Part shown: piece by piece, positions 1 to 55,942 of the stretch
How the letters are laid out: each line of letters begins with the position of its first letter
Position numbering within the stretch: position 1 is the stretch's first letter
Source of the DNA: Terriglobia bacterium
GTDB lineage: Bacteria; Acidobacteriota; Terriglobia; 20CM-2-55-15
Assembly (NCBI GenBank): GCA_963664115.2
Contig: CAXWPJ010000011.1
Span: forward strand, 1 to 64,000
Reading direction: 5' to 3'
DNA: 64,000 nucleotides
Program-made: the position numbers and the translations under genes
Notes under the pieces: model-generated
Database searches by the model: none
Seen by the model: the letters and a program-made list of their open reading frames with translations, nothing else
Told to the model about the DNA's origin: nothing

Positions 1-891
1 ACCTGGATTCCGAAGATCACGTGTACCAGCCGCCCAACTCCCGCGGCTCTCAGGATCCCTACGATCTCGGCGCGCTGCTCCAGTCGGGGTTTGGAAGTCG
101 CGTCCGATCGCTCGAAGCCGGAACCGGGGGACCCGACCCGCTATTTCAGCCCGTGGGCGGCATGATGGAGATCCCTCTGGCGTTCCAGCGTGCTCTCGGC
201 GACCGGATCACACTGGAAGCCGAAGTGAAGACGATTCGCCAGACAGGCGATGGCGTTCGAGTAGTCTACCGAGAGACGAGAACCGGCACCGAGCGGGAGG
301 AGACCGCCGATTACTGCGTCTGCTGCCTGCCGATGGCCGTCATGAGAAGGAATCGACGCGAACCTGTCGGCCGAGATGACCCAAGCCGTGAATGACAGCC
401 GTCACAGTACGAGCGCCAAGATGGGATTGCAGATGAGGCGGCGCTTCTGGGAAGAGGACGAGGGGATCTTCGGTGGGCACCTTTGGACACGGAGTCTCCA
501 GCTCGGAGAGTTTTCCTACCCTTCGAACGACTTTTTTACCCAAAAGGGCGTTCTCCTCGGCTTTTACGGTAATGGCGAGATGGCGGATCTGGCGGACATG
601 CCTCTCGAGGCCCGAATTGATCACGTGCTTACCTATGCGGGCAAGGTGCATCCTCAGATGCGCGAAGAATTCGAGAGCGCATACTGTGTTTGGTGGGAAA
701 AAGTTCCGTACAGCCTGGGCGCCTACCACAGCACCCCGCGTGGAGCGCATCTGGAACAACTCAGCAAGGCCGATGGTCGGATCTATATGGGATGTGCGGG
801 CGCCAGTTCGCGTCCGGCGTGGCTCGAAGGCGCCATCCAAGCTGCCTGGAGGACGGTCGAAATGTTGCACGAGAGGGTAATGCAGGAATAG
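1..891 (+). pseudogene. Flavin monoamine oxidase / L-amino acid oxidase family, C-terminal part; 5' end outside window, frameshift near 345
   Basis: Two consecutive ORFs (QPVGGM...ADYCVCCLP, then AKMGLQ...AWLEGAIQAA) together form one amine oxidase C-terminus. Confidence 0.75.
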
Positions 892-1099
892 TCGCCACAG
901 TGTTCTTTCAGTTTTCGTAGAGCGTGCACTCTGGGCGCTCTGACGAGCCTACCTCCTCAGTTCGACTATCCGTTTTGGTTCGAATGCGACCTTCAACATT
1001 GCCGGATATACGCTGCGGGGCATAACTACAGTGATCTAGAACTCGATAGCAACGGAACATTCCGCAAATGCCAATTCTCAACGTCCGACAAGATGATCT

Positions 1100-1467
1100 A
1101 TGAAAGGGGATGTCAAGAGAAACAGCTCCCCGATGGCCGGCCAGGCGGACACTTTTGTCGTGACAGCCAGCCCCTCTACCGTTATGTGAAGCCCTGGTTC
1201 CGGCAATCCGCAGCGAAATCGTACATCTTTAAGACGGTCGATTCAGAAACTGAACAGCAGATGGGACGGCATGTGCCGACCATGGATCTATCTGAGCCTC
1301 GAAGGCTATCGCTGTTTCAGGTCGTGCGAGGGGGGATAGAGATTTAAAAGTGTCCTCTGGACGTATCCAGGGACCACATCTTGTGCAGATCCTCACCCTC
1401 GATCCTCAGTTGTTCCGACTCCGTCTAACGACTCAGTACGGCTCTACCGGTCACGGATCGAAACGGC
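1100..1467 (-). ncRNA. Predicted bridge/seek RNA in the downstream non-coding region of IS1111-A
   Basis: 370-bp non-coding region after the transposase; minus strand has ACAAGATG and TAAATC either side of a hairpin, matching the two target halves. Confidence 0.65.
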
Positions 1468-2532
1468 TTATGTTGTCATCCAGCTCAGTTTCTTTGGATC
1501 GAACGATTCTCCTTTCTTCCAAAGCGTCAGCACCAGCGCGGCGATCTTGCGGGCCAGAGTGACCCGCGCCATTTCCTCCCGCATCCCACGCATCTGGAGA
1601 CTCTCCAGATAAATCCGATACGGCTCGCTTTGTTTTCCCGATGCCGCGGCTGAGAAGAACACCGACTTCAATCGCCGGTTGCAGTTCGCATTCAATCCGC
1701 GCGTGGCCACCGGTTTCCTCCGTCGCACCACACGTCCACTCTGCATCTCATACTCCGCGCTCATGTGGGTCACCACACCCAGGCCACTGTAGCTCCAGAA
1801 CTGCGGTGTCGTGCGGAATCGGTACGGCGTGTCCACGATGGCGACGATCTGTGCCGCCCGAACCGGTCCCAGTTGTGGAATGGTCTCGAGCAGTTTCACC
1901 GCCTCATGGTGCCGGCCCTCCACTCGCACCGCTTTTCTGGATTGTTTCCGCAGCAACTGGACCTGGTCCAGTTCCGCATACAACCATCGGGCGCGCTGCC
2001 TCATCCCCGGCTCGGTCAGCTTCTCCAACCACTGTTCGCGCTGACTCGGCCGATAGACTCCGTCCTTCGGTGTCGGGATCCCCCGTCCCCGGTATATCGC
2101 TTTGATCCGCGACATCACCCGTTGCGTGTCCAACTGGAACGTGTCATAGGCCTGCACCAGTTGCTTCAATTCTCGCGTCGCTTCATGGCCGTGATACACC
2201 GAGCGCAACAGTCCCACCCGCAACAGCTCGGCCAGCTTCCGCGCATCCGGCTTATCCCCCTTCGACCCTTCTTGCATCCACTTGTTCTGTCGCGGATCGC
2301 ACACCACCACCTCGCTCACCCACGGCCGGATCACTTCCGATAACCAGCCCGCTTGCGTGGTCTCCTCCAACCCCACGTGCATCGGCCCACTCAATCCCTC
2401 CAGCAGCCGTGTGATACTCCCCGCCTCGGTTTCCACGATCGTTTCAAACACCAGTTTGCCGCTCCCGTCTCTCACCGCAACCACCGTCGTTGCCTGGTGC
2501 ACATCCATACCCATATACTTGTCTTGTTTCAT
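1468..2532 (-). CDS. IS110 family transposase/recombinase
   Basis: N-terminal GMDVH, E and DxxDA DEDD motifs; IPQLGP and YSGLG C-terminal motifs. Confidence 0.93.
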   Translation of the reverse strand: MKQDKYMGMDVHQATTVVAVRDGSGKLVFETIVETEAGSITRLLEGLSGPMHVGLEETTQAGWLSEVIRPWVSEVVVCDPRQNKWMQEGSKGDKPDARKLAELLRVGLLRSVYHGHEATRELKQLVQAYDTFQLDTQRVMSRIKAIYRGRGIPTPKDGVYRPSQREQWLEKLTEPGMRQRARWLYAELDQVQLLRKQSRKAVRVEGRHHEAVKLLETIPQLGPVRAAQIVAIVDTPYRFRTTPQFWSYSGLGVVTHMSAEYEMQSGRVVRRRKPVATRGLNANCNRRLKSVFFSAAASGKQSEPYRIYLESLQMRGMREEMARVTLARKIAALVLTLWKKGESFDPKKLSWMTT

Positions 2533-2804
2533 CTCGAACGCTCCTTTTCTGGGATCAACGCTGTATACGTTGATCAGGTTGTTGAGTGAGTCTTCTCTCA
2601 ACAACCCCCAGTCTAGGGGCGTCCTTTCATACTGCGATTTAACAGGACTTGAGAATGGATTTCGGAGATGGACAGGTCTGCCATCCGACTCTGTTGGGAT
2701 GGCATGATTCACGAGCCCATGCAGCGTTGACGTAGACAAAGATTGACATGCAGTACATTCTTCGTTTTCATGTGACCTACCTCAAGGGAATCGGAGGGAA
2801 AGAC

Positions 2805-3848
2805 ATGCTGGACCGAATTGCGACACGACGGAAACGGGTTAGAAGGAGGCTCCTCTTTGGTGGCCTTGCGATGGCTGGTGTCTTCTTTAGTTGGCCCGTC
2901 GTCGTGTCCGCTCACCATTCCGTTGCTGGTTACGTCGACGAAATCACTGAAGCGGTAGGCGAACTCGTGGCTTTAGAGTGGAGAAACCCACACATTAGGA
3001 TCGCTGTAAAAACGATGAATACCAACGGTGAGGAAGAGATTCGGATCATGCATGGAAATTCTATTTATAACTTGCAGCGCCAAGGTATAACCCAAGACTT
3101 GTTCACAATAGGCGAGCGTGTGAGGGTGGCCGGTAGGAGATCGAGTCGCGACGAGCTGGACTTTCTCGCCACCAACATTTTGTTTACAGATGGGCGTGAG
3201 GTATTGCTCTGGCCAACCCAGCCTCGATGGTCGGAAGAGATACTTGGCGGTCGAGATTTGTTGGCTGAACGTGGGCTGAACGGCGACGGTGAGGGAATTT
3301 TTCGCGTCTGGAGTGTTCCACGTGGACGTGCTCGTCGAGTAGTTACCCACCTGCCCTTTCAGGAATCCGCGATTGCTGCAAGGGAGTCATGGGACATGTT
3401 CGACAATTTCGCGATCCGTTGCGAACCGGAAGGCATGCCGAGAATCATGACCAATCCGCATCCTTTCGAGTTCATCGATCATCGGGATCAGATTACGCTG
3501 AGGACCGAGTTTTACGACATTGAGCGGACGATCCATCTGAATCGATCCGAGGCCCCTCCCAACGAACCCGCTTCAAGGCTGGGTTACTCGGTAGGAGAAT
3601 GGCAAGAGGGAACCCTGGTCGTTAGAACCAGTCGAATCAACTGGCCCTTCTTCGACACCATCGGTACGCCACAAAGCGAGGCAGTCGAAATCGTGGAACG
3701 GTTTACCGTGAGCAACGATCAGAGCCGCCTGGATTTCCAAATAACAGTAACTGACCCGCAAACCTTCACCGAACCCGCAACCATCGAGGGTTATTGGCTG
3801 GCTCTTGGAGATTCGATTCCGATCTACGATTGTCAAACGGATCAATGA
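2805..3848 (+). CDS. Secreted DUF6152-like protein
   Basis: Signal peptide then AHHS...WRNPH motif; long open ORF. Confidence 0.7.
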   Translation: MLDRIATRRKRVRRRLLFGGLAMAGVFFSWPVVVSAHHSVAGYVDEITEAVGELVALEWRNPHIRIAVKTMNTNGEEEIRIMHGNSIYNLQRQGITQDLFTIGERVRVAGRRSSRDELDFLATNILFTDGREVLLWPTQPRWSEEILGGRDLLAERGLNGDGEGIFRVWSVPRGRARRVVTHLPFQESAIAARESWDMFDNFAIRCEPEGMPRIMTNPHPFEFIDHRDQITLRTEFYDIERTIHLNRSEAPPNEPASRLGYSVGEWQEGTLVVRTSRINWPFFDTIGTPQSEAVEIVERFTVSNDQSRLDFQITVTDPQTFTEPATIEGYWLALGDSIPIYDCQTDQ

Positions 3849-3904
3849 TGGAGGTGGGCTGAGGTCACGGCTTCGTGAGGAGGGCCACTTAACCCCCTTT
3901 AGAA

Positions 3905-3944
3905 TTCTCAAGGTCCGAGAAGATGATTTATCAGGACTTGAAAA
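3905..3944. repeat. 40-bp palindromic repeat copy
   Basis: ttctcaaggtccgagaagatgatttatcaggacttgaaaa. Confidence 0.9.
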
Positions 3945-4028
3945 CAGATTTCAGGCTTTTGAGGGGATAGAACGCCGCTTCACGGCACCGGCAGTAGCGT
4001 GTCCGAAGGCTAGAGAATATCCGAAGCA

Positions 4029-5120
4029 TCAATCGGTCAGGAAGTGATACATGCCGAGGACGTTCTCGTCGACCCAATCGAAGTCCCCCCAGTGACTGTA
4101 CTCTTCCATCTTGATGTCTCGTTGCATGTCCTCCAGTGTCTGGCCCGAAGCGATGCCGGCGGCAACCTCGTCTCGGAGTGTTTCGAAGTACTCTCGCCAC
4201 GCTCTGACGTCTTCCCGGGTGCCCACCGGCCCGTGGCCTGTCGCAACGAACTCAAAGTCTGCCGCTAGCTCCTCCGTTTGACTGATAGCAGCCATCCACT
4301 CTTCGAACATCCCGAGTTCGTAGTCCATCTCCCTGTTCGGAAGCCGCCCGAACGAGACATAGTCGACGATCAACATCACGCTGTCGTCTGGAAAGGTGAT
4401 CATGCTCGAGTCCTTCGAGTGATTCATCTCGCCAACCCAGGTCAGGTTCACCCGTTTTCCGCCCAAGTTGATCTGAAACTCGTCTGTATAGGTGATATCA
4501 GGAGGACGCACAAAGCTAATTGGTCCGCGCACAACCTCCGCGCCGCTGAGCACGCCGTCCTCGTTCGCGTCGAATCCTTCGAACTGGCTCTGGCTCGAGC
4601 CGGCGAAGCGCTGGAGGTCCGCAGGTGTCTCACTTTCCTCAACCACTCCGTTGCCGTTGGTATCCAGCGCCGCCACGGGCTCGTACTGCCCAACGACTTG
4701 CGAGAGCGTGGTAGACGCTGGCGGCATCGCCAGGTACGAGAGCATGTTGGCATGACCCACAAACCGGGCCGTATCCGCGAAGACGTCCCCGCCGGAGGCA
4801 TGGTCCCAGTGGTAGTGGCTGTAGACGACGTATCTGACCGGGACCCCGAACCGAGCGGCGAACTCCTCCTTCAGCCACATCGAGAATTCAATGTTGATCG
4901 GATCCGCCAAGACGATGCCTTCCGGCGTGACCAGGAAGACGGTGCCGTGGTTGTTGCTCATAGCCCTGTAGACGCCGCCGGCGATGTGCTCAATCGTCCA
5001 TCGCGTTGCCTCGGTGGGCGACGAACGCCTCAACTCAGGCGTCTGGCCAAAGCCCCCTGACGCGAGCACCAGCGCTGCGACCAAAACCGCCAGAATCACG
5101 CTTGTCGTACTGCTACGCAT
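4029..5120 (-). CDS. Secreted metallo-beta-lactamase-fold hydrolase with inserted EF-hand-like loops
   Basis: SHYHWDH, HS and GHG motifs; DTNGNGVVEESE and DANEDGVLSGAE loops. Confidence 0.85.
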   Translation of the reverse strand: MRSSTTSVILAVLVAALVLASGGFGQTPELRRSSPTEATRWTIEHIAGGVYRAMSNNHGTVFLVTPEGIVLADPINIEFSMWLKEEFAARFGVPVRYVVYSHYHWDHASGGDVFADTARFVGHANMLSYLAMPPASTTLSQVVGQYEPVAALDTNGNGVVEESETPADLQRFAGSSQSQFEGFDANEDGVLSGAEVVRGPISFVRPPDITYTDEFQINLGGKRVNLTWVGEMNHSKDSSMITFPDDSVMLIVDYVSFGRLPNREMDYELGMFEEWMAAISQTEELAADFEFVATGHGPVGTREDVRAWREYFETLRDEVAAGIASGQTLEDMQRDIKMEEYSHWGDFDWVDENVLGMYHFLTD

Positions 5121-5445
5121 TCGCTTCTCCTTACTAGCATTTACTGGCCGCCTCGACTTCGGTTTGTTTATAGCGGAGAGTGACGGCAGTGAGGTACAGC
5201 CAGAACGTGAGGGCTAGAACGGCATACAGAGAATCCACATCGAGGCTTGTGAACGCACTTAGGAGCAGAGCTGCAACCCAAACAACGACTATGGCTTTAC
5301 GCATGCTTTCCACTGGCCACACCTCGGAGAAATCTTAGCACGCCTCACGCAACTCAACAGCGACTCCGCCCACCGCCTCGGTTCCAAGTTGTTGATTTTG
5401 GGGGATGACTCGGCAGGCTCGGTTGATGCCGGCCTAGGTTGTAAA

Positions 5446-5485
5446 AGTTCAACGTCCGAGAAGATGATTTCTCAGGACTTGACCA
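5446..5485. repeat. 40-bp palindromic repeat copy with mismatched outer arms
   Basis: ttcaacgtccgagaagatgatttctcaggacttgacc. Confidence 0.9.
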
Positions 5486-5494
5486 AGCAAATCT

Positions 5495-5905
5495 ACGACA
5501 CCGTCAGCGCTCTGATAGTTGTCAGACCCCGCTTGTTCCGCTTATCCGCTCAACATGGGCAAGTTCACCAACTGGCTGGACGCGGGGCGGGTCGTGCTGA
5601 ACACGTTCCGGCTGTACGCCGAGTTCAACGGCACGCTGACGCCCATCACCGACAACGAGGCGTTGCGGGTGGCAACCGACGAGTACAACGCCATCGTGCG
5701 GGCAAGGGCATGAACGGTCAGCCCATACGCCGGACCACACCTTCGATCAGCTCACCATCGTCTGCTTCGCAGCCCAGTGGGTGGCGATGACGTCTGTCTG
5801 CTGACTGACAGGAAGCACATGTGCACTCTGGTGAAAAAGTATCCTCGATCGATCAACTTGCCAATGCCAGCAGAAGCTATTGCGGGTCAAGGGACGCCGC
5901 GTAAG
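5495..5905. repeat. 411-bp segment duplicated in inverted orientation at 33479-33889
   Basis: Direct comparison; near-identical ORF translations at both sites. Confidence 0.9.
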
Positions 5906-6923
5906 CAACAAGGTACAGCAAGTCTTCCGTACTGAGATCGGCAACGACCGGCGTCATCAGCTCAGACCACAGTCCCTTACGCGTGCCCTGCTGCATGTCA
6001 TACAACGCCCGCATGAGGTAACTGGCAGACCGACCCGCGATTCCAGGCAAGGGGCCGAGACCCTTCAGACCTGGACCGTGACAGATACTGCACTGCCCGG
6101 CCTCGGCCAATGCCCTACCCTTCTCGACCGCACCAACCGGAACATAAGCGATCCAGCCGGACCTCGGATTACGGTGCACCTCTGCGTGCTCGATATTCTC
6201 CGGGGTTTCAACGATACGCAGCCCGATCGGTTCAGTGCCCGACGTAGCAGCAGTAGCCTGGCACTCCGTGAAGATGTCGATTTCACAGTCCACTGGGAGA
6301 TAAATGCCCCCCAGCGTGTAGCTCTCGAATACGGTGTCGGTCTCCACGACCCGGACCCATGGCCTCCAAGGCTGTGCGCCGAAGTACTCGGCAGCAGCAA
6401 CGATCTCCTCTTCGGTCATGTTCTTCGCGATTTGGGTCATCGTCCGAGCGTTGTTCTTTCTCGGTTCTGAGCTATTCCTCAGATCGTTGCGAAAATCGTC
6501 CATCTGCTGGATGAAATACGAAACCGGTAAGCCCGCGACGCCAGCGTTCTCCGGGCGCCCCTGCCCATTGGGGTAGTGACAAAGCGCACACGCCCGCACG
6601 ACAGCGCCCTCCTCTGCCGTCCGACCGTTCGCAACGATGTCAGGCATCGGCGTTGGATGGTCGTCGGGATACCAGTCGGCGGGAGAGCGACCGCGAATCT
6701 GGGTGGCCGTGAACGTCCGGTCAGTATCGGGCAAGCTGAAGACCGTCCCATCCTCTTCCGGACGGGGAGGACGCGGCCCCAATGGGATGCCATAGGCCCA
6801 ATCAGGTCGCTCAGTCTGCACCAATGCTTGGCCGTTAGCCGATTGCTCGCTCTGGGCGCTCAATACGCCAACAACAACCACGGGCATCGCCAACAAGACA
6901 ACGAAACCTAGAATTTTCTGCAT
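5877..6923 (-). CDS. Di-heme cytochrome c4-like protein
   Basis: CALCH and CSICH heme motifs; signal peptide. Confidence 0.88.
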   Translation of the reverse strand: MQKILGFVVLLAMPVVVVGVLSAQSEQSANGQALVQTERPDWAYGIPLGPRPPRPEEDGTVFSLPDTDRTFTATQIRGRSPADWYPDDHPTPMPDIVANGRTAEEGAVVRACALCHYPNGQGRPENAGVAGLPVSYFIQQMDDFRNDLRNSSEPRKNNARTMTQIAKNMTEEEIVAAAEYFGAQPWRPWVRVVETDTVFESYTLGGIYLPVDCEIDIFTECQATAATSGTEPIGLRIVETPENIEHAEVHRNPRSGWIAYVPVGAVEKGRALAEAGQCSICHGPGLKGLGPLPGIAGRSASYLMRALYDMQQGTRKGLWSELMTPVVADLSTEDLLYLVAYAASLDPQ

Positions 6924-7121
6924 GACGTCCCTCCCTCCTGCTACTCCTTGCTACACGGCACTCCGCAGAACCGCGACCGGCATTGACAGGTTGATCCTAG
7001 CACGGCCATCGAGTCCCGTCCGAAGTGTATCAGCCTCGTCCCGACCTTGCCGAGATCAGTCCCATGACCATGGCCCGTTCTCAACCCAAATTGCCTCGAT
7101 CGCATCAGGCACGGTCATCCA

Positions 7122-7385
7122 GGTACTGTCAACTTACGGGTCCAAAGGTCGAACCTGTGCCAGATCGGCGCCGCTCGATCAGCCTACCGAGACCGCATTC
7201 CAAGTCGCAAAGGAACGGGCCCGAAGCATCTGGTGGTGAACCGCTTTTAGTCTGTGCCTTCCCAACGGGAAAAGATTCAGAACGACACCGTGAACTGAGA
7301 GGAAGAGTTGCGCCTGCCGTGGCGACTTGAACCGTCGCATCTGTCGCTCCCGTTGTCGGGTCGGTTGGTGTGGCCGTGCGGGCAC
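7122..7385 (-). pseudogene. IS6-family remnant: transposase C-terminus plus terminal inverted repeat
   Basis: HQPTRQRERQMRRFKSPRQAQ motif; GGTACTGTCAACTT end at 7122-7135. Confidence 0.75.
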
Positions 7386-7504
7386 TTCAAATCTGAGGAT
7401 GTTGTGGACACTGTCCGGGGAGGTTGAGCGAGAAGCGTGAGGGTCCTGAGAACCCGTTGAAGCAGCAAACGAAAAGTCCGAGCGCCTTTAACAGCTCTTC
7501 GCGA

Positions 7505-7544
7505 AGGTCAATGTCCGAGAAGATGATTTATCAGGACTTTACCG
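7505..7544. repeat. 40-bp palindromic repeat copy (GGTCAA arm type), next to a kinase-tail repeat at about 7551-7600
   Basis: ggtcaatgtccgagaagatgatttatcaggactttacc. Confidence 0.85.
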
Positions 7545-7643
7545 CGAAAATCAGAGAATCGGCACCCGTTCTTTTAGTTCTTCAAACCAACGTCAGGCTG
7601 TTTTATACGTTCACGTTCGCAGCTCCAACGCTCACCTCGAAGA

Positions 7644-7865
7644 TTACGAATTCTTCTGGTATGGAGATACCTTCGCCGCACTGTAATCAGAGCGATGCCC
7701 GCATTCAGATTCGCTGCAGGTGAGAAACAGCTGTGCCAGCGGCTCGAACGGACCGCGTCCTTCGGTTCGATCCAGACCGAACAAAATCGGCGAGTGGCAT
7801 TTCGCACAAAGCACACTCAAGTACCATCGCTTCTCAGTCGATTTTGGAAATCGGGAAAACTGCAT
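7644..7865 (-). CDS. Small putative Zn-ribbon protein, paralog of 43743-43994
   Basis: RWYLxVLCxxCxSPILF...LTCxxxECG..DYS shared by both copies. Confidence 0.7.
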   Translation of the reverse strand: MQFSRFPKSTEKRWYLSVLCAKCHSPILFGLDRTEGRGPFEPLAQLFLTCSESECGHRSDYSAAKVSPYQKNS

Positions 7866-7890
7866 AAGCACACGGTTTTGGAGGATCGCG

Positions 7891-8142
7891 CAATTCTCAA
7901 CGTCCGACAAGATGATTTCTCAGGACTTGAGAATGATTTTCACCTCTTTTGCCGGCCCCGCCAGCTGCAGCGGCTTGTTAGGCCCCAAACGTGGACCTCG
8001 ACCACCCGTGGAGCCTGGAGCGCCAGCGGAAGGCCGTCCACTGCATCCCGTGTTAGGCAATATTATTTTGCCCAAACAAGTTCATTGAGAATCGATACTC
8101 TGAGTAGGGCATGGCTCCATCTGTCATATTCCGAGTATCCCC
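7891..8142 (-). pseudogene. Inverted duplicate of the GNAT unit 3' end (55272-55523), cut off by IS256
   Basis: 252 bp near-identical; one end at the repeat, the other at the IS256 inverted repeat. Confidence 0.88.
7894..7933. repeat. 40-bp palindromic repeat copy
   Basis: ttctcaacgtccgacaagatgatttctcaggacttgagaa. Confidence 0.92.
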
Positions 8143-9527
8143 GAGTTATAACCGAATCTGGTGTTTGAGGGATTGAATAAGAGCGGCGTATCTGGTTGAT
8201 TTGTTGTGACAAAACTTCAAAGCAACCATAGGAGATACGCCACTGTGAGCAAGAGTAACGTGAATGGACCGGAAGGTCGAGAAACGATTGAGGATCCAGT
8301 AACAGAACTACTACGAGTTGGGGCACAGCAACTGATCCAACGCGCAGTGGAAGCCGAATTGGCAGAGCTGCTATCCCAGCACGGTGGCCGGCGAACTGAG
8401 ACAGGAAACGCCGGGGTGGTACGCAACGGTTATCTGCCGGAACGCGAACTGCAGACGGGATTGGGTCCGGTAACAGTCCAAATCCCGAAGGTCCGTGCCA
8501 AGACGGGCGAAGCTGTGACGTTCCGATCGGCCCTGGTACCACCGTACATTCGGAAGACGAAGTCGCTGGAAGCAGCGGTGCCGTGGTTGTATTTGAAAGG
8601 CGTTTCCAGCGGCGAGATGGGTGAGGCCCTAAAAGTTCTTGTCGGTCCCCAGGCGCAGGGTCTGTCGGCGAGCACGGTATCGCGGTTGAAACAGGTTTGG
8701 GGCGAACAGTACCGCCTCGGATGCGAGGAGCGTTTGGATGCAGATCGCTGGGTCTATGTCTGGGCCGACGGCATCTACAGCGGACTTCGGGCGGAACAAA
8801 CCAAGTTGTGTGCATTGGTCGTGATCGGCGTGAATGAACGCGGAGAGAAGCGTTTCCTGGCGATCGAAGACGGTGTACGGGAATCGACACAGAGTTGGCG
8901 CGAGGTCTTGTTGAAGCTGAAGTCCCGTGGGATGAATGTTCCGAAGTTGGCCATCGGTGACGGTGCGATGGGGTTCTGGGCCGCACTGGAGGAAATCTAT
9001 CCCGAGACACGTCAACAACGTTGCTGGATGCACAAAGTCATGAACGTCCTCAACTGCCTGCCCAAGTCGGTCCAGGCGAAGGCGAAACAGGCCCTGCACT
9101 CGATCTGGCAGGCCGAGACGAAGGCAGACGCCGAGAAGGCATTCGACTTGTTCATTGAAACCTATGAACCGAAGTATCCGAAAGCCACACTCTGCCTGCA
9201 GAAAGACAGAGAGGAACTGCTGGCCTTTTACGACTTTCCGGCCAAGCACTGGCAGAGCATCAGAACGACGAATCCCATTGAGTCGACCTTTGCCACCATT
9301 CGACACCGAACGAAGCGATCCAGAGGTTGCCTGACACGGGATGGCATGCTGCACATGATGTTCAAACTGGGCCAGTGCGCTGAGAACAATTGGCGACGAT
9401 TACGAGGATTCGATGATCTGAGCAAGGTAATCATCGGAGTGAAATTCAACGATGGTGTCGAAGCGACACAAGTCGATCAGGCCGCCGCTTGAATCAATCT
9501 CCTAAACACCACTTTTGACAATAACTC
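8143..9527 (+). mobile_element. IS256 family copy 1 (transposase 8206-9492), no target duplication
   Basis: GAGTTAT... terminal inverted repeats; Mutator-type DDE motifs (WADG, IGDG, QRCWMH, TNPIES). Confidence 0.95.
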
Positions 9528-10134
9528 AAGCCTTTGTCCCAGGACTCTCTAAGTGGTTGGCATAAATCTCGCTGAGAGAGCGAAAGGGTCGACCTGTGAG
9601 TAATCCGTATCTGAGCCATAACATGTATCCAACGAGTGAGTACTTGTGGTAAATCATGACTCTTGCTATTCCCCCGGGGCGGAGTACACGGTAAATCTCA
9701 CCGAAAGCTTTTGGAGTATCAGGCGTGTGGTGCAGGACGCCCCACGAGTAGACCAGATCAAACGTGTCATCGTCGAACGGTAACTCTTCAGCATCCGCTA
9801 CTCTGACGTCGGATCTTAATCCATACACAGCCAATCGTTTCCCGGTGTGCGCCACAGCCCGTTCAGTAAAATCGATTCCCGAGAGCGTTTTGGGATCTGA
9901 TTTTGCCCATTCGACATGGTCTGCGCCCATGCCAACCCCAAGCTCTAAAACGTCTCTGTTGTTCCCTTCATAGAATCTTGCGAAATCGAAAATGTATGGC
10001 TCCAGCTCATATCTCGTTTTCGCATGTGAGTCGTAGTACTCCCTTTCAGATGGTCCAACGGCATATATTTCACCGCAGCTTATTTCGTTCCAGAACTCTC
10101 TTACCCTGGTTTTAAGTTTGGTTTCGGGAGTCAC
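9528..10134 (-). pseudogene. Class I SAM methyltransferase, 3'-truncated by IS256
   Basis: VLELGVGMG motif; DAEELPF; ORF stops at the IS end. Confidence 0.8.
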
Positions 10135-10148: not shown

Positions 10149-11533
10149 GAGTTATTGTCAAATGTGGTGTTTAGGAGATTGATTCAAGCGGCGGCCTGAT
10201 CGACTTGTGTCGCTTCGACACCATCGTTGAATTTCACTCCGATGATTACCTTGCTCAGATCATCGAATCCTCGTAATCGTCGCCAATTGTTCTCAGCGCA
10301 CTGGCCCAGTTTGAACATCATGTGCAGCATGCCATCCCGTGTCAGGCAACCTCTGGATCGCTTCGTTCGGTGTCGAATGGTGGCAAAGGTCGACTCAATG
10401 GGATTCGTCGTTCTGATGCTCTGCCAGTGCTTGGCCGGAAAGTCGTAAAAGGCCAGCAGTTCCTCTCTGTCTTTCTGCAGGCAGAGTGTGGCTTTCGGAT
10501 ACTTCGGTTCATAGGTTTCAATGAACAAGTCGAATGCCTTCTCGGCGTCTGCCTTCGTCTCGGCCTGCCAGATCGAGTGCAGGGCCTGTTTCGCCTTCGC
10601 CTGGACCGACTTGGGCAGGCAGTTGAGGACGTTCATGACTTTGTGCATCCAGCAACGTTGTTGACGTGTCTCGGGATAGATTTCCTCCAGTGCGGCCCAG
10701 AACCCCATCGCACCGTCACCGATGGCCAACTTCGGAACATTCATCCCACGGGACTTCAGCTTCAACAAGACCTCGCGCCAACTCTGTGTCGATTCCCGTA
10801 CACCGTCTTCGATCGCCAGGAAACGCTTCTCTCCGCGTTCATTCACGCCGATCACGACCAATGCACACAACTTGGTTTGTTCCGCCCGAAGTCCGCTGTA
10901 GATGCCGTCGGCCCAGACATAGACCCAGCGATCTGCATCCAAACGCTCCTCGCATCCGAGGCGGTACTGTTCGCCCCAAACCTGTTTCAACCGCGATACC
11001 GTGCTCGCCGACAGACCCTGCGCCTGGGGACCGACAAGAACTTTTAGGGCCTCACCCATCTCGCCGCTGGAAACGCCTTTCAAATACAACCACGGCACCG
11101 CTGCTTCCAGCGACTTCGTCTTCCGAATGTACGGTGGTACCAGGGCCGATCGGAACGTCACAGCTTCGCCCGTCTTGGCACGGACCTTCGGGATTTGGAC
11201 TGTTACCGGACCCAATCCCGTCTGCAGTTCGCGTTCCGGCAGATAACCGTTGCGTACCACCCCGGCGTTTCCTGTCTCAGTTCGCCGGCCACCGTGCTGG
11301 GATAGCAGCTCTGCCAATTCGGCTTCCACTGCGCGTTGGATCAGTTGCTGTGCCCCAACTCGTAGTAGTTCTGTTACTGGATCCTCAATCGTTTCTCGAC
11401 CTTCCGGTCCATTCACGTTACTCTTGCTCACAGTGGCGTATCTCCTATGGTTGCTTTGAAGTTTTGTCACAACAAATCAACCAGATACGCCGCTCTTATT
11501 CAATCCCTCAAACACCAGATTCGTTTATAACTC
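10149..11533 (-). mobile_element. IS256 copy 2 with 9-bp target duplication ATTCTCCTG
   Basis: Identical transposase; duplication at 10140-10148 and 11534-11542. Confidence 0.95.
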
Positions 11534-12461: not shown

Positions 12462-13846
12462 GAGTTATTGTCAAAAGTGGTGTTTAGGAGATTGATTCAA
12501 GCGGCGGCCTGATCGACTTGTGTCGCTTCGACACCATCGTTGAATTTCACTCCGATGATTACCTTGCTCAGATCATCGAATCCTCGTAATCGTCGCCAAT
12601 TGTTCTCAGCGCACTGGCCCAGTTTGAACATCATGTGCAGCATGCCATCCCGTGTCAGGCAACCTCTGGATCGCTTCGTTCGGTGTCGAATGGTGGCAAA
12701 GGTCGACTCAATGGGATTCGTCGTTCTGATGCTCTGCCAGTGCTTGGCCGGAAAGTCGTAAAAGGCCAGCAGTTCCTCTCTGTCTTTCTGCAGGCAGAGT
12801 GTGGCTTTCGGATACTTCGGTTCATAGGTTTCAATGAACAAGTCGAATGCCTTCTCGGCGTCTGCCTTCGTCTCGGCCTGCCAGATCGAGTGCAGGGCCT
12901 GTTTCGCCTTCGCCTGGACCGACTTGGGCAGGCAGTTGAGGACGTTCATGACTTTGTGCATCCAGCAACGTTGTTGACGTGTCTCGGGATAGATTTCCTC
13001 CAGTGCGGCCCAGAACCCCATCGCACCGTCACCGATGGCCAACTTCGGAACATTCATCCCACGGGACTTCAGCTTCAACAAGACCTCGCGCCAACTCTGT
13101 GTCGATTCCCGTACACCGTCTTCGATCGCCAGGAAACGCTTCTCTCCGCGTTCATTCACGCCGATCACGACCAATGCACACAACTTGGTTTGTTCCGCCC
13201 GAAGTCCGCTGTAGATGCCGTCGGCCCAGACATAGACCCAGCGATCTGCATCCAAACGCTCCTCGCATCCGAGGCGGTACTGTTCGCCCCAAACCTGTTT
13301 CAACCGCGATACCGTGCTCGCCGACAGACCCTGCGCCTGGGGACCGACAAGAACTTTTAGGGCCTCACCCATCTCGCCGCTGGAAACGCCTTTCAAATAC
13401 AACCACGGCACCGCTGCTTCCAGCGACTTCGTCTTCCGAATGTACGGTGGTACCAGGGCCGATCGGAACGTCACAGCTTCGCCCGTCTTGGCACGGACCT
13501 TCGGGATTTGGACTGTTACCGGACCCAATCCCGTCTGCAGTTCGCGTTCCGGCAGATAACCGTTGCGTACCACCCCGGCGTTTCCTGTCTCAGTTCGCCG
13601 GCCACCGTGCTGGGATAGCAGCTCTGCCAATTCGGCTTCCACTGCGCGTTGGATCAGTTGCTGTGCCCCAACTCGTAGTAGTTCTGTTACTGGATCCTCA
13701 ATCGTTTCTCGACCTTCCGGTCCATTCACGTTACTCTTGCTCACAGTGGCGTATCTCCTATGGTTGCTTTGAAGTTTTGTCACAACAAATCAACCAGATA
13801 CGCCGCTCTTATTCAATCCCTCAAACACCAGATTCGGTTATAACTC
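12462..13846 (-). mobile_element. IS256 copy 3, no target duplication
   Basis: Identical transposase 12497-13783 and inverted repeats. Confidence 0.95.
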
Positions 13847-15883: not shown

Positions 15884-15969
15884 GAACTGTCCCTCCAAGC
15901 CTCATTGCAATACGTATGTAAACCTCGTCAGGCAGCCGCTTTCGATTTGTTCGCGACCTTTGATACCAC

Positions 15970-17124
15970 TAGTGTACCCCGCTCGAAGTAATGTAATTAA
16001 AATAGCTTTCCAACGTCCAATAGAGAATGAGGAAAGCACCGACCATTGAATTGGATGACAAGCAGCGGATGGAGTTGGAGCGACTGAGTCGAAGCCGGAG
16101 TACATCGGTCCGGTTGGCGGAACGATCCCGAATTGTATTACTGGCCGCTGAAGGTCGGAACAATTATGAGATCGCCGCCCGCTTGGAGATCACGCGCCAG
16201 AAAGCGGGCCGCTGGCGCAATCGTTTTGTGGAACAGGGCTTGGCTGGGATCGAAAAGGATGCGCCGCGAAGCGGACGGATTCCCACGATCAGTCGCCGGA
16301 AGCGAGCCCGGATCGTCAAGAAGACACTGGAAGAGAAGCCCCCGAACGCGACGCACTGGAGTCGGGCCTCGATGGCGAAGGCCGTTGGCGTGAGCGAGTC
16401 CACGGTCGGGAAAATCTGGCGGGTCCATGGACTGAAGCCTCATCTGTCACGAACCTTCAAACTATCCAACGACAAACGATTCGCCGAAAAGCTGGAGGAT
16501 GTGGTCGGTCTGTATCTGAGCCCACCGGAAAACGCCATTGTCTTGTCCTGCGATGAGAAGAGCCAGATGCAGGCCCTGGACCGCACGCAACCCGGGTTAC
16601 CTCTGAAGAAGGGGCGGTGTGGCACCATGACCCACGATTACAAACGTAACGGGACAACCACGCTTTTCGCCGCGCTCAACATCCTGGACGGTTCGGTCAT
16701 CGGAACCTGCATGCCAAAGCATCGCCATCAGGAATGGATCCGGTTTCTGAATCAGATCAAACGCGCCATGCCGAAAGATAAGGAGATCCACATTATTTGC
16801 GACAACTATGCGACTCACAAACATCAGAAAGTCGTCAACTGGCTCAAGCGTAACAAGCGTTTTCATGTGCACTTCACGCCAACCAGTGCGTCGTGGCTCA
16901 ACATGGTCGAGCGCTTTTTCCGGGATCTGTCCGAGCAACGACTCCGGCGTGGCGTTTTCCGCTCGGTCCCCGAGTTGATCCAGGCCGTGGAGGACTACCT
17001 CGCTCGTCACAATGAAGACCCGAAACCCTTCATCTGGACTGCAACGGCTTCCGACATCCTTGCTAAAGTCCAGCGCGGCCGGCGAAATCTTGATAAGTTA
17101 CAGTCTGTTTAACGGGGACCACTA
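15970..17124 (+). mobile_element. IS630 family element (transposase 16027-17112)
   Basis: DEKS, DNYATHK, WLNMVERFF; imperfect inverted repeats bounded by TA. Confidence 0.93.
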
Positions 17125-17384
17125 GGTATTCCGGGAAAGAGTTCCCGAAGGTTCCGTCTTTTCTCGTGCGGGACTCCATCGAAGCGACCGTGGATGATCT
17201 CTGCGGTCTCGACCGCCCGTTGAAGGTCGCTCGAATAAATGGCCGTGGCTGGCAATGAACCCAATCTCTTGGCAGTCAACTGTGCTTGTTCCACTCCGCG
17301 CTCGGTCAGTCCCTTCAGCGGGCTGGGTTGGTCGTCCCAGTCGTACTCCCCATGTCGAACCAAATAGATTGTGCGGATTGCCAT
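17125..17384 (-). pseudogene. Histidine phosphatase family protein truncated by IS630
   Basis: LVRHGE and SSDLQRAVETA motifs. Confidence 0.85.
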
Positions 17385-21119: not shown

Positions 21120-23057
21120 ACCGGGTCGCCAGAGGCGGTCACCCGCCTCCGGCTCCCACAGAACGTAGCGTGCGGATTTCCCGCACTACGCTCTTCAGAA
21201 ACGGATTCACAACACAGCAAGAGACTGGAACTCCCGATACGGAAGCGCCAGCTTGGGCCGCTGCAACGGAAAGCGCGTCTTAATCCGGTTGAATACCTCC
21301 CACCGGACGTAACCAGCGCGACTCCGGCTGCTCAGCATCTTGCGCCAGTAACGCTCCACGACCCGAGCAACGTGCTGGAGGGCCCGGAAGTTTCCGGCGA
21401 TGCCGTAGTAGGCGTAGTGACCACGCAAGACCCGATTCAGATTCTGAACCTGCTCCCGGACCGGCAAGTGACGCATTCGTCTCATCAGATCGCGTAGATG
21501 GGCCAGACTGCGTTGAAGTCGAGACTTCTCAGTGCGCAATCCCACCCGGAAATTGCCTTTGCGATTCTGCGAGCAGTACAGGGTCATGCCCAGAAAGTAG
21601 ATCGTTTCTGGACGTTTTCTCCCGTGCTTGCCCGCATCCCGCTGAGCAAAGCGACCGAATTCAACGAGCTTTGTCTTTGTCGGTTCCAGAACCAGCCCAA
21701 ACTTTCCCAATCGCTTGCGCAGCACGTTCTGAAAACGAAGCGCATCGTCCCAATATTGGAAACACACCACAAAGTCGTCGATGTACCGCACCAGATAGGC
21801 TTCACCTTTCAGGTGTGGCCGGACCATCCGGTCAAACCACAGGTCGAGCACATAGTGCAGGTACAGATTGCTCAGCAGAACGCTGATCGACCCACCCTGT
21901 GGGGTTCCCTCATCGTTGGGATGCAATTCTCCGTCTTCGAACACCCCCGCCTTCAACCATCGTCGAATCAGGCTGATGATCCGCGGATCTCCGACTCGAT
22001 GCTCCACAAAGCGGAGTAGCCATCCATGGTCTAAACTCCCGAAAAAGTTCTTCAGGTCTGCCTCCAACACCCAACTCACCTTGCGCCCAGCAATCACCTC
22101 ATGCAGGGTTGCCAGTGCATAGTGCGCACCCAGCCCAGGCCGACCACCAAAAGAACAAGGCAAGAAGTCCTGTTCGTAGATGGCTGTCAGCACCTCGGCC
22201 ACGCTGCGCTGAAGGGCCCGATCTTGAACACAAGGCACGCCCAGGGGACGTTTCTCCTGTTTGCCGGGCTTGGGGATATACACTCGCCGAATCGGCGGTG
22301 CGCGATATCCCTTCCGGTGTACCGATTCGAGCATCGGCTCCACCCAGTCCCCGAATTCTTCCTTCGCCTCCGGCACTCTCTGGCCATCACATCCGGGAGC
22401 AGAGTTCCGTGGAATCGCACAAAGGCTCTTCCACACCCTCTCTCGGGTGACATGATGCGCCAGCGATGTGAACCGGAGCTTGGGTTCACTCCGAGCTTTC
22501 GCTGCTATTTGTTCCAGTTTCGTTTCCATGACTGGCAGTTCCTCTCGTTGTATAGAGGGCCGAATCCTCCCATTGAATGGAGCCCCTGTTTCCCTTGAAC
22601 AATTCCTCTTCCGCTGACCGCTTCCCCATGTGATCGGTTCTCCCGACCTCGGAGTACTATCAGTCAGTCTGACTTCCGCCAGGCCTTCGGGTTGTCCTCA
22701 CGTTGTGGGCTTGTCCAACCCTACAAGCTCCGCTTGAGCCTGACGGATCTCCCTTGTTCCCATGAAATCTCTCAGTTATATGCCGGCGGTACGAACCCCG
22801 GAAGCACCCCAGAACGCTTGCCATTGCACGCCCTGCGATTCCGCCTTCCCCATAGAGAGACAAGGTCGGCTACTTCAACCACGATCGATTTCGGGGCTAT
22901 CTTTCCGTTCACTTGCGTTCCGGCCTACTCCCTCCCTGTCTACGCTTCGCAGTGACCGTTACCGGCCCCCACGCAAGACTCGGTTCGTGGCTGCGGGCTA
23001 AGCTTTGCCACGGGCGCCATTTCAGGCGACTAGACTTCATGCGCTTTCAAGGCGCAA
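21120..23057 (-). mobile_element. Inner RT-encoding group II intron
   Basis: Starts TTGCG; D5 GAGCGTAGTGCGGGAAATCCGCACGCTACGTTC and D6 follow the ORF. Confidence 0.88.
21207..22529 (-). CDS. ltrA: Group II intron reverse transcriptase/maturase without an endonuclease domain
   Basis: RPLGVP, GTPQGG, RYIDDF, domain X (LRGHYAYY). Confidence 0.93.
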   Translation of the reverse strand: METKLEQIAAKARSEPKLRFTSLAHHVTRERVWKSLCAIPRNSAPGCDGQRVPEAKEEFGDWVEPMLESVHRKGYRAPPIRRVYIPKPGKQEKRPLGVPCVQDRALQRSVAEVLTAIYEQDFLPCSFGGRPGLGAHYALATLHEVIAGRKVSWVLEADLKNFFGSLDHGWLLRFVEHRVGDPRIISLIRRWLKAGVFEDGELHPNDEGTPQGGSISVLLSNLYLHYVLDLWFDRMVRPHLKGEAYLVRYIDDFVVCFQYWDDALRFQNVLRKRLGKFGLVLEPTKTKLVEFGRFAQRDAGKHGRKRPETIYFLGMTLYCSQNRKGNFRVGLRTEKSRLQRSLAHLRDLMRRMRHLPVREQVQNLNRVLRGHYAYYGIAGNFRALQHVARVVERYWRKMLSSRSRAGYVRWEVFNRIKTRFPLQRPKLALPYREFQSLAVL

Positions 23058-23516
23058 CCCCGCGCAGATCCGTACGTGCGGATACTGCATACGGCTCCTA
23101 CTTCGGATGAATAGCGGTACACACGACGTACCGCACACCGCACAACCCCTGCGTCACGAAGAGCCCGCTCTGAGTCGGGATCGTGGGGAATTCGAACGAT
23201 GTTCTCCTCGGTCCGCGGCCTTCCCTCCCCCTCCTCCGCCGAGTACGGGGCCTCTTTGTTCGGCCGGTTAAAAGGTACAACGACGCGGTCAGACTTCTCC
23301 CGGGCGTACACGTCCGTCGTGCGGACTTGGCCTTCACGGACCGGTCTGGATCGTGCGACCCAGACACCCAGGAGATCTCCCGGATCTCGCGCATGTTGTT
23401 TCTCAGCGTGCGCGTCGTGTTGCCTTCCCCTTATCACGAGAGAGTCGGCATCCTTAGCACGGGTCTTAGACTACCGAGGACCGACAGACCATTTGCGATT
23501 TAACGCAGCCTATGGA

Positions 23517-28798: not shown

Positions 28799-28968
28799 AG
28801 GAAAATCTCCTGTGTGGTGCTCGTTACGTGCGCGAGTTCTTCGGAGCGAATCTATAACTGTTGTGGACCGATTTCAAGGAGTTTTGACCCAGCCCCCGCA
28901 GGGTGTTTAAACAGCCGAAGGTGTTGGTACCCTGTAAATCGGCAATTCTCAACGTCCGACAAGATGAT

Positions 28969-30509
28969 CTATGAAAGGGGATGTCAAGAGAAACAGCTCC
29001 CCGATGGCCGGCCAGACGGACACTTTTGTCGTGACAGCCAGCCCCTCTACCGTTATGTGAAGCCCTGGTTCCGGCAATCCGCAGCGAAATCGTACATCTT
29101 TAAGACGGTCGATTCAGAAACTGAACAGCATATGGGACGGCATGTGCCGACCATGGATCTATCTGAGCCTCGAAGGCTATCGCTGTTTCAGGTCGTGCGA
29201 GGGGGGATAGAGATTTAAAAGTGTCCTCTGGACGTATCCAGGGACCACATCTTGTGCAGATCCTCACCCTCGATCCTCAGTTGTTCCGACTCCGTCTAAC
29301 GACTCAGTACGGCTCTACCGGTCACGGATCGAAACGGCTTATGTTGTCATCCAGCTCAGTTTCTTTGGATCGAACGATTCTCCTTTCTTCCAAAGCGTCA
29401 GCACCAGTGCGGCGATCTTACGGGCCAGAGTGACCCGCGCCATTTCCTCCCGCATCCCACGCATCTGGAGACTCTCCAGATAAATCCGATACGGCTCGCT
29501 TTGTTTTCCCGATGCCGCGGCTGAGAAGAACACCGACTTCAATCGCCGGTTGCAGTTCGCATTCAATCCGCGTGTGGCCACCGGTTTCCTCCGTCGCACC
29601 ACACGTCCACTCTGCATCTCATACTCCGCGCTCATGTGGGTCACCACACCCAGGCCACTGTAGCTCCAGAACTGCGGTGTCGTGCGGAATCGGTACGGCG
29701 TGTCCACGATGGCGACGATCTGTGCCGCCCGAACCGGTCCCAGTTGTGGAATGGTCTCGAGCAGTTTCACCGCCTCATGGTGCCGGCCCTCCACTCGCAC
29801 CGCTTTTCTGGATTGTTTCCGCAGCAACTGGACCTGGTCCAGTTCCGCATACAACCATCGGGCGCGCTGCCTCATCCCCGGCTCGGTCAGCTTCTCCAAC
29901 CACTGTTCGCGCTGACTCGGCCGATAGACTCCGTCCTTCGGTGTCGGGATCCCCCGTCCCCGGTATATCGCTTTGATCCGCGACATCACCCGTTGCGTGT
30001 CCAACTGGAACGTGTCATAGGCCTGCACCAGTTGCTTCAATTCTCGCGTCGCTTCATGGCCGTGATACACCGAGCGCAACAGTCCCACCCGCAACAGCTC
30101 GGCCAGCTTCCGCGCATCCGGCTTATCCCCCTTCGACCCTTCTTGCATCCACTTGTTCTGTCGCGGATCGCACACCACCACCTCGCTCACCCACGGCCGG
30201 ATCACTTCCGATAACCAGCCCGCTTGCGTGGTCTCCTCCAACCCCACGTGCATCGGCCCACTCAATCCCTCCAGCAGCCGTGTGATACTCCCCGCCTCGG
30301 TTTCCACGATCGTTTCAAACACCAGTTTGCCGCTCCCGTCTCTCACCGCAACCACCGTCGTTGCCTGGTGCACATCCATACCCATATACTTGTCTTGTTT
30401 CATCTCGAACGCTCCTTTTCTGGGATCAACGCTGTATACGTTGATCAGGTTGTTGAGTGAGTCTTCTCTCAACAACCCCCAGTCTAGGGGCGTCCTTTCA
30501 TACTGCGAT
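28969..30509 (-). mobile_element. IS1111-A copy 2 (transposase 29339-30403), in a repeat split into 28946-28968 and 30510-30526
   Basis: Same ends, core and insertion position as copy 1. Confidence 0.93.
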
Positions 30510-30532
30510 TTATCAGGACTTGACCTCGTAAA

Positions 30533-39570: not shown

Positions 39571-39779
39571 ATCCTTCCCGCCTTGGGGAGTGATTCGCAA
39601 ACGCCGCCCAGCAGGCTGACCGGAATCAGGGCACACATAGTCTAGTCGTTGTAACTTAAAATTAACCTCTCTGGCATCATATCAATGCGAGGCGGATAAG
39701 CGGTATAAGCAGGGTCTGACGACTATGGTAGCGCTGACAGTGTCGTAGATTTGCTTGGTCAAGTCCTGTATCTGGACTC

Positions 39780-40076
39780 CTCTGTCAAGTAGGCGCAGCT
39801 CTCCCGTCAGCTTTCTTCGGCAAAATGCATTCAGCAGGACTGACTAGAAGTTACGAGGTGAGTAGCTAGTCGACTGCACCCGTATCTTCGGCCTCAAAAG
39901 TGGAACTGTATTGTTCCGGGCCATGATGGAAATTTGCGCGCGGGGAGCCAACCGATAAAATAACGGCCTCTAAGGGCCAAAGGACTTGTCGGCGTTGCCC
40001 CGCGCCGGTCTGACCGGTACGCCATCATCTCGAACCTCATCGCAGCTCGCTGAAAAGATATTCCGACTGTTCCGGG
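39780..40076 (-). ncRNA. Predicted bridge/seek RNA of IS1111-B
   Basis: Internal loop at 39952-39992 carries CAAGTCCT and TTTAT, matching the two target halves. Confidence 0.68.
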
Positions 40077-41121
40077 TCAGGCCGCCTGATACCGGGCCTG
40101 ATGGTCACAGTCACGGTTCCAAACCGCCCACACGCGACGCGCCAACTTGTTGGCCAGTGCAACGATTGCCTTGTTGTGTCCGCGGAACTCGTGTTTCTGG
40201 AGACCCCATTGCTGGAGAGGTGTCGGTGTGGCGCCCTCTCGATGGGCACTCCACAACAGGGAACGGCCCCCATGAACCAACAGCATCCGGAGGTAACGAT
40301 CGCCTTGCTTACTGATCCGGCCCATGCGTCGCTGGTTGCCACTGGAATGTTCCCGGGGTGTGAGTCCCAGATAACTGGCAAAATGGCGGGACGTTCGGAA
40401 TCGTTTGATGTTTCCAACAAACCCCACCATTGCCGTTGCCGTTAACAGGCCGATGCCGGGAATCGACGTCAGACGCGCGACCTCAGGCATCTGCCGAGCC
40501 AGCGTCTTCAACTCTTGTTCCACCGATCGTAAGCGAGATTCCAATTCACGGATCTCGCCACACACCTGGTGAAACATCTCCCGAACGACACTGGGGATGA
40601 CGACATCTGCATCTTCGATCAGCTCCATTACCCCCGGCACCAGATGATCCGCTCCGGTCGGGATCACGTAGCCAAACTCCCGTAACAACCCCCGCACCGT
40701 ATTGATCCGTGCGGTTCGGGTTCGCATCCACGCCGAACGGATTCGATGCAATGAGGTCAGTTGCTGTTGGGCCAGGGTTTTGACCGGCACTGGATGAATA
40801 TCGCTGTCACGATAGGCTTCCAACAATCCTTTCACATCCGTACGGTCGGTCTTGTTGCGCCTGACGTAGGGCGTCACATACTGCGGCGAGATCAGAACGA
40901 CCGTGTGTCCCAGTTCCCGGATCTTCCGACCCCAGTAATGGGCGGATCCGCAGGCTTCCATCACCACGGTCGCCAGCTCCTGGTTCGCAAAGAACCCCAG
41001 AAACTTTGCCCGACTTAAACGATAGGTTTTCTCTACATGTTTTCTCTACACCGGGGCGATCTGAAACACCAATTTGGAAAACATTCTTTGCCAGATCCAC
41101 TGCTATCGTTCTATTCTTCAT
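40077..41121 (-). pseudogene. IS110 transposase frameshifted by a short tandem duplication
   Basis: VDLAKNVFQ in one frame, MEACG...KTDRTD...SSG in another; gttttctctaca duplicated at about 41026-41050. Confidence 0.85.
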
Positions 41122-41369
41122 CTCGGACTCCTTTTTGTTCACACTCACGTGTTTCGCCCGCTTTATTGCGAGGCTCAAAATGACTGTGGCACTTCGATGC
41201 CGACTCAGTCATCAAAGAGGAGTCCATACCATCAATAAACGACATTGTCGGACAGTGAGAATTGGCGAGCTGAGCGTGTCGCCACATTCCATTGAAACAG
41301 CATGGGATATGGCCAATTGGAGGCCATTCGAGGAACGGCAGGCGAGAGGAGAGTTTCCGTTCGGTGAAA

Positions 41370-55361: not shown

Positions 55362-55480
55362 CACGGGATGCAGTGGACGGCCTTCCGCTGGCGCTCCAGG
55401 CTCCACGGGTGGTCGAGGTCCACGTTTGGGGCCTAACAAGCCGCTGCAGCTGGCGGGGCCGGCAAAAGAGGTGAAAATGA

Positions 55481-55930: not shown

Positions 55931-55942
55931 CCCTGAAATCCG

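Follow-up and report, generated by a model that had tools for sequence, protein, structure and literature searches.

Insertion sequences of the IS110/IS1111 type have been known since 2024 to be mobilised by an RNA-guided mechanism, and REP-targeting elements figure among the examples in the two descriptions (PMC11187229, PMC11208160). For the IS1111 group, PMC11187229 sets the element ends 7 nt and 3 nt outside the sub-terminal repeats, and has the match to the top strand of the target come first in the seekRNA. In the same paper, ISPa11 (REP target), ISEc11 and ISKpn4/ISPst6 (attC target) appear with a DEDD transposase, sub-terminal repeats with 7-nt and 3-nt extensions, a long downstream non-coding region holding two target matches (top strand first), a palindromic-repeat target and natural re-direction among relatives: the element described here shares these characters, but is divergent (below the NF033542 cut-off), has an altered serine motif and uses a different repeat. 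IS621 and ISCro4, as presented in PMC11208160, resemble the element in a 2-nt core common to target and donor and, probably, in separate target and donor loops, whereas in the present element the predicted RNA lies downstream of the gene, the guide order is reversed, the sub-terminal repeats are long and the core is TC rather than CT. Likewise, ISPpu9 and ISPpu10 of Pseudomonas putida KT2440 are two IS110-family elements on one repeat family, but PMC12288879 gives them as 57.8% similar and inserted at the same site, whereas the lineages reported here are 23% identical and occupy three positions and orientations. The scaffold motifs of the present element were not found in those supplementary files of PMC11208160 that were searched, nor was a named ISfinder relative identified.

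What this locus adds to the known mechanism is an intact IS1111-type bridge recombinase that has multiplied recently and belongs to a divergent, probably acidobacterial clade; its target and donor guides can be read from the sequence. Some 25 guide programmes occur naturally on one scaffold, which makes them a ready test set for whether IS1111 RNAs use a donor loop and for the extent of outer mismatch tolerance. Less ordinary is that two distant lineages have converged on a repeat that marks rearrangement breakpoints.

The window, that is, the whole stretch of 64,000 nucleotides analysed, holds two copies of the element. Our best reading, with a probability of roughly 0.9, is an intact IS1111 element with guides that match the insertion site as well as the joined ends of the element, and with RNA-guided recombination as its likely mode of movement; the preliminary description had already proposed an intact IS1111-type recombinase of this kind with a readable target. 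The features concerned are the following:

1097..2637, minus strand: IS1111-group element, copy 1 (1541 bp; 7-nt left / 3-nt right end convention)
1468..2532, minus strand: DEDD transposase/recombinase, 354 aa (P0001)
1100..1112, no strand: right sub-terminal inverted repeat, copy 1
2618..2630: left sub-terminal inverted repeat, copy 1, 7 nt inside the left end
1078..1096, plus strand: left portion of the 34-bp repeat that copy 1 interrupts
2638..2652, plus strand: right portion of the 34-bp repeat that copy 1 interrupts
28968..30508, minus strand: IS1111-group element, copy 2 (transposase 29339-30403)
28949-28967 / 30509-30523: repeat around copy 2

The transposase scores 54.6 bits against PF01548 (N-terminal DEDD RuvC-like domain, cut-off 29) and 36.1 bits against PF02371 (C-terminal domain, cut-off 21.3), and a profile search distantly matches both solved enzymes, IS621 and ISCro4 (PDB 8WT6, 9T56), with E values of 1e-11 and 7e-10. 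Residues D10, E56, D93, D96 and S258 are invariant among 114 homologs of 65-86% identity; a contig search with P0001 alone had returned 2 loci, and the relatives came from further searches. By these features the element is best classed as an intact IS1111-group IS110 insertion sequence. The full-length match to NF033542 (122.3 bits, E 2.5e-35) does not reach the curated cut-off of 140, and S258 keeps the ISCro4 spacing from G250-L251, but the P and G of the GL-P----S(T)G motif are replaced: the sub-threshold score and the altered motif point to a divergent IS110 clade. The best plasmid relatives of the transposase are 27-29% identical, and two named homolog records, 68% and 74% identical, belong to Acidobacteriaceae and Terriglobia MAGs, so that the host is probably an acidobacterium.

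The sub-terminal inverted repeats of copy 1 agree exactly over their first nine bases and at 10 of 13 overall, and the element ends lie 7 nt and 3 nt outside them, as fixed by an empty allele (G000:C6:45067) that equals the window sequence minus the element, exactly; this allele lies on contig C6, where window 1-9528 has a near-identical counterpart that lacks the element. The ends given previously, 1098-2638, describe the same cut as 1097-2637, shifted within shared bases. From the empty allele it is clear that insertion occurs without true target duplication. One public-run contig also skips 1097 to 2636, at low depth, with a short side of 28 nt and possibly from another repeat. The host genome searched (4.89 Mb, 12 contigs) contains seven near-full copies, one of them with its left end split by an IS1380-like element, and an orphan 28-nt end, as well as a non-coding relative, 67% identical, with a truncated gene. 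As the preliminary description had stated for the two window copies, which differ at 5 of 1541 nt, all eight sites (seven near-full copies and the end fragment) use the same base and the same orientation of one repeat; unrelated targets, which would have spoken against guided insertion, were not encountered among them. The transposase frame is intact in all seven near-full copies, and this, together with their near identity and with the filled and empty alleles of one locus, indicates recent movement.

The element has 371 nt of non-coding sequence downstream of the transposase, against 105 nt upstream, and the predicted RNA lies in the downstream region:

1275..1400, minus strand: core of the predicted bridge/seek RNA, in the non-coding region 3' of the gene, with the target loop ahead of the donor loop
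1389..1400, minus strand: 5' side of the target-loop closing stem, paired with 1328-1337
1377..1384, minus strand: target guide 1 (ACAAGAUG), complement of the right-flank top strand in element orientation
1352..1375, minus strand: hairpin between the target guides, sequence variable, fold retained
1341..1346, minus strand: target guide 2 (UAAAUC), equal to left flank plus TC core; would pair with the bottom strand
1308..1315, minus strand: putative donor guide ACAGCGAU, 7/8 complementary to the left-end side of the junction, weakly supported in relatives
1285..1291, minus strand: donor guide AUAGAUC, identical to the right end and core predicted for the circle junction
29248-29255, 29212-29217, 29179-29186 and 29156-29162, minus strand: guides of copy 2

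On the minus strand, 1377-1384 reads ACAAGATG and 1341-1346 reads TAAATC, with the hairpin 1352-1375 between them, so that the earlier reading of 1341-1384 holds throughout. An alignment of 25 guide types yields two conserved stems, the first enclosing guide 1, the hairpin and guide 2, and the second ACAGCGAU, a small hairpin and AUAGAUC; the guide order is thus top-strand match first. In the two closing stems 98.8% of the cells pair, as against 44-58% in slid controls, with two-sided changes in just 3 of 17 consensus pairs, while the fold of the inner hairpin is kept in 23 of the 25 types (z < -1). Folding of the non-coding region as a single sequence, which the preliminary description had suggested, was not significant (z -1.55 and -1.28).

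The earlier account did not include a donor loop and took GAT as the core. The donor guide ends in TC in 33 loci, in AC in 37 and in GC in 1; this final dinucleotide is identical to the beginning of the right flank in 58/61 loci and to that of the left end in 54/54, the left ends in this comparison having been filtered for GC at positions 3-4, and the covariation amounts to about two evolutionary events (TC clade versus AC clade, plus the GC case). This tracking argues for a shared core of 2 nt (GA on the plus strand, TC in the direction of the transposase) in place of GAT, whose third duplicated base is not common to relatives, and makes a donor loop in the RNA likely. Alternatively, the target loop alone might work, the donor matches being a by-product and the ends being recognised by protein through the sub-terminal repeats. 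An 82-nt target-only seekRNA was sufficient for ISEc11 in PMC11187229, and in many AC-core relatives the match of the second donor guide is poor; against this stand the donor-loop stem, 98.9% paired with 2 two-sided changes, the guide end that follows the core, and the donor-binding nucleotides predicted in IS1111 RNAs by Durrant et al. (PMC11208160). We regard a target-loop-only mechanism as possible but rather unlikely.

Two observations on relatives concern the same region. In L023 (G040:C64) a second copy of the donor-loop region stands directly behind the right end, and G000:C12:530997-531495 is an orphan guide-RNA region that belongs to the AC-core clade; its gene is truncated, its guide matches its own flank and its donor guide ends in AC.

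By analogy with ISEc11 and IS621, the element read as RNA-guided would be excised as a circle, with its right end joined to its left end over the TC core. The junction would form a promoter with the -35-like TTGACA of the right end (1111-1116, minus strand), for which a weak -10 candidate is seen by inspection at 17-bp spacing, and this promoter would drive both transposase and guide RNA. In the target loop, ACAAGAUG would bind one strand of the repeat centre and UAAAUC the opposite one; in the donor loop, AUAGAUC, and probably also ACAGCGAU, would pair with the junction. Strand exchange at the core would be carried out by the DEDD/serine enzyme. All of this, from excision and promoter to RNA and strand exchange, is modelled here on the known systems. 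No circle junction was found in the contigs of eight runs, an assembly form that drops rare molecules, and RNA-library contigs cover the region at a depth of 1-3, from which neither strand nor level is derivable.

The target is best seen by comparing occupied and empty repeats:

3908..3941, plus strand: example of an empty repeat
3908, 5449, 7508, 7897, 17465, 19589, 19647, 24286, 41373, 54770, 55484, 55946, 58374: the 13 empty repeats in the window

On the plus strand GATTTA follows the cut at all eight sites, and the other flank reads ACAAGATGAT in 6/7 and AGAAGATGAT in 1/7; one of the seven copies for which this flank is known sits in a AGAAGATG variant (C12:167620). Against 126 empty repeats (well-kept copies with a GATGAT centre), GAT-TTA is found in 8/8 occupied and 31/126 empty sites (Fisher p 3e-5) and ACA in 6/7 and 31/126 (p 0.002); among TTA sites, ACA is present in 6/7 occupied and 4/31 empty (p 5e-4). 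Owing to duplicated regions, the sites in this comparison are partly dependent. The claim that only occupied repeats have both halves stands within the window, where none of the 13 empty repeats has them and single halves occur at 3908, 7508, 7897, 17465 and 54770 (the coordinates given previously were within 3 nt), but fails genome-wide: seven exact ACAAGATGATTTA 13-mers lack the first element, six in empty repeats, one of these being the empty allele of copy 1, and one in a half-repeat with the second insertion sequence described below. Moreover, a 97%-identical copy in G402 carries guide UCAAGAUG and is inserted in a AGAAGATG site, so that the outer one or two bases of guide 1 tolerate mismatch. 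In view of the seven perfect targets and the mismatched copy, the both-halves rule is a strong preference, not an absolute one. No exact 11- to 13-mer target exists in the genome outside the repeat family, three apparently separate sites being damaged repeats.

The same repeat family is used by a second IS1111-type element, at a position 5 bp from the cut of the first:

39769..41234, minus strand: second IS1111-type element (IS-B)
39981-39988 (CAAGUCCU) and 39954-39959 (UUUAUC), minus strand: IS-B guides

The IS-B transposase is 23% identical to that of the first element and well above the NF033542 cut-off; its frame is broken in the window copy and intact in five others. IS-B cuts TTTAT/CAGG, in the opposite orientation to the first element, and its target and junction differ at the apparent core (TTTAT/C versus AGATA/T). 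In the genome, 7/8 left ends follow TTTAT in the repeat and 1/8 abuts another element, while 10/11 right ends precede the repeat-like C(A/G)GGACTTG or a close variant, the eleventh being of the mirror-arm type. Relatives with guide UUUCUC occur at TTTCT (G402, 2 loci) and with UUUAAC at TTTAA (G404), and one with guide UUUGUC sits, mismatched, at TTTAT; in G407, G429 and G401, relatives have other guides and non-repeat sites. A sister lineage, 75-76% identical to IS-B and with guides CAACGUCCG and UUUCUC, takes the mirror position on the other arm in 12/12 G402 copies examined (right ends not parsed): eight of these lie in clear repeats, three in partial ones and one directly behind the first element. 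The guides of IS-B and its sister follow single-base variants of the repeat, and three offset registers from two distant lineages make a fuller example of IS110s sharing a REP.

Such convergence would be explained if movement, though RNA-guided, also needed or was strongly helped by the fold of the repeat or by an arm-bound protein, e.g. a Xer-type recombinase. Three guide programmes from two lineages match the centre and both arms of the repeat, the repeat has the layout of the host dif site, and a preference of ISPpu9/ISPpu10 for clustered REPs is suggested in PMC12288879. However, close relatives use non-palindromic targets, three of the G402 mirror-arm copies lie in partial repeats only, and guide sequence by itself confines exact targets to the repeat family, which leads us to consider assistance by fold or protein unlikely. 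Insertion in the hairpin loop, as described initially, is correct as to the repeat base, but since relatives use non-hairpin targets the hairpin is likely incidental and probably outside what is recognised. On the favoured reading, the repeat is likely targeted as the sole genomic place with guide-matched sequence, not because of its folding.

Covariation between guides and flanks was followed from 171 loci, which gave 124 parsed anchor hits; 78 of these satisfied the close-clade anchors, and deduplication left 71 loci in 25 guide clusters. Distant relatives (27-54% identity), several of them with the same matches by eye, were excluded because their anchors differ. Guide 1, scored against the reverse complement of the seven post-core bases (core excluded, best of seven registers for own and other flanks), matches its own flank at 6.04/7 and others at 3.46/7 (22 clusters); guide 2 matches the four pre-core bases at 3.55/4 and 1.38/4, respectively (19 clusters), with identity of 0.98-0.83 at -1 to -4, 0.52 at -5 and about 0.3 beyond. 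For neither guide did any of 100,000 permutations reach the observed score, a test that overstates independence because the clusters are related to each other. The weakest cases are L060 (4/7), L048 (2/4) and the L118 cluster (2.5/4). Multi-copy relatives in G401, G421 and G403 have unrelated, non-repeat flanks that are free of this palindrome and match their own guides. The comparison proposed in the preliminary description supports both target guides as real, and natural re-programming can be seen among relatives. That the matches are due to chance or captured flank, with targeting by protein alone, is highly improbable: in favour one can cite their shortness (8 and 6 nt) and the lack of a significant single-sequence fold, but guides change in step with flanks in 22 and 19 clusters, on a constant scaffold.

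The 34-bp repeat itself is found empty 173 times at up to 9 mismatches to the 34-nt consensus, and not once in a base-shuffled genome. Five genomes of the genus have 111, 75, 32, 7 and 0 matches and 56 others searched have 0-1, so the repeat is abundant only within the genus. Copies are clustered, with a median gap of 3.5 kb; of 122 close neighbours, 92 share a strand, and by a loose motif test about half of the copies come after the 3' end of a member of a kinase-like gene family. Thirteen distinct repeat pairs share one 150-nt flank at >=96% and mostly not the other, and a second occurrence of window 2636-3945, on C2, has repeats at its boundaries, so that the repeat marks duplication breakpoints. 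Structurally, a 6-bp centre, of which there are two main types, separates its two arms (11-6-11). A strict central crossover was considered and not borne out, as arm variants depart from the shared flank in several of the shared-flank pairs.

A probable host dif site lies at C2:108120, in single copy and near the GC-skew switch, its pattern being present in 27/34 genomes of the family. Its XerC-side arm matches the left arm of the repeat at 7-8/11 positions in 121 of the 173 copies, and the right arm agrees at about 6/11 by inspection. Also by inspection, the XerC and XerD genes of the host are probably those at C9:863 kb and C2:150 kb. A dif-like, Xer-site relationship is a lead. pdif modules alternate in strand, unlike the mostly same-strand neighbours found here. 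IS1202-family insertion sequences, for their part, are of the DDE type. Their concentration at XerCD sites, as given in 10.1101/2022.12.17.520857, resembles that of the present elements at possible Xer-type sites, although the IS family is different and the Xer nature of this repeat is a lead. Tentatively, and on balance doubtfully, the repeat could be the recombination site of an undescribed dif-derived gene-cassette system in a genus of sponge-associated acidobacteria, with RNA-guided IS1111 elements having converged on this site at least three times (centre, right arm, mirror left arm) and retuned single guide bases to its variants; if so, nature would have recorded here how guides evolve against a recombination site of the host. 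A description of the 34-bp repeat was not found in a non-exhaustive search of the literature on pdif/IS1111, Acidobacteria dif/XerC and sponge-Acidobacteriota REPs.

Among the tyrosine recombinase, RAYT-like genes and integron integrase examined, none could be tied to the repeat. The ORF 40077-40967 was ruled out as its recombinase, being the second IS110 transposase. At C5:52062-53267 a 316-aa tyrosine recombinase is flanked by two inverted second-type repeats. As a general partner this gene (C5:52189) was rejected: with this query it was not found in G402 or G403, which have 75 and 32 repeats, and the homologs in G407 and G401 have no repeat nearby. With respect to RAYT-mobilised REPs, two Y1 genes at C10:490-493 kb have one degenerate repeat nearby and no flanking pair. 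The integron integrase (G000:C9:714590-715873; TIGR02249, 439.6 bits) has no repeat within 14 kb. Integron attC sites comprise R''/L''/L'/R' boxes over at least about 57 bp, a length compared by inspection only with the 34-bp core of the repeat. Other repeats stand back to back with spacers of about 25 or 114 nt, e.g. at window 19589/19647. Furthermore, short 3' ends ...VLNWFEELKERVPVP occur at window 18770, 19523, 24220, 27608, 30529, 32495 and 33304, often beside a repeat, and are probably remnants of the expanded kinase-like gene family.

Four sponge-metagenome runs of one study contain 81-83% of the words, the contigs of one of them covering the element; a hydrothermal-vent run with a share of 0.48 was left out of the analysis. 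The host is probably a sponge-associated acidobacterium. Window 1-9528 and 55471-63536 have long duplicates, 99.7-99.9% identical, in G000:C6:19099-46165, with differing IS content and joins at repeats; these may be a real duplication or strain haplotypes. An IS1380-like element, of the type at window 34361-36220 and present in dozens of copies, has entered the same base inside the IS1111 left end in two places (G000:C9:938024-939880 and C12:159346-161203), the IS1111 body being gone beside the latter. Finally, an IS256/Mutator-family element is present six times in the window and dozens of times in the genome, and further mobile elements occur:

8143-9527, 10149-11533, 12462-13846, 53581-54772, 56960-58344, 62151-63535: IS256/Mutator copies
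15969-17125: IS630-like element
36213-37540: IS4-like element
21120-23060: group II intron
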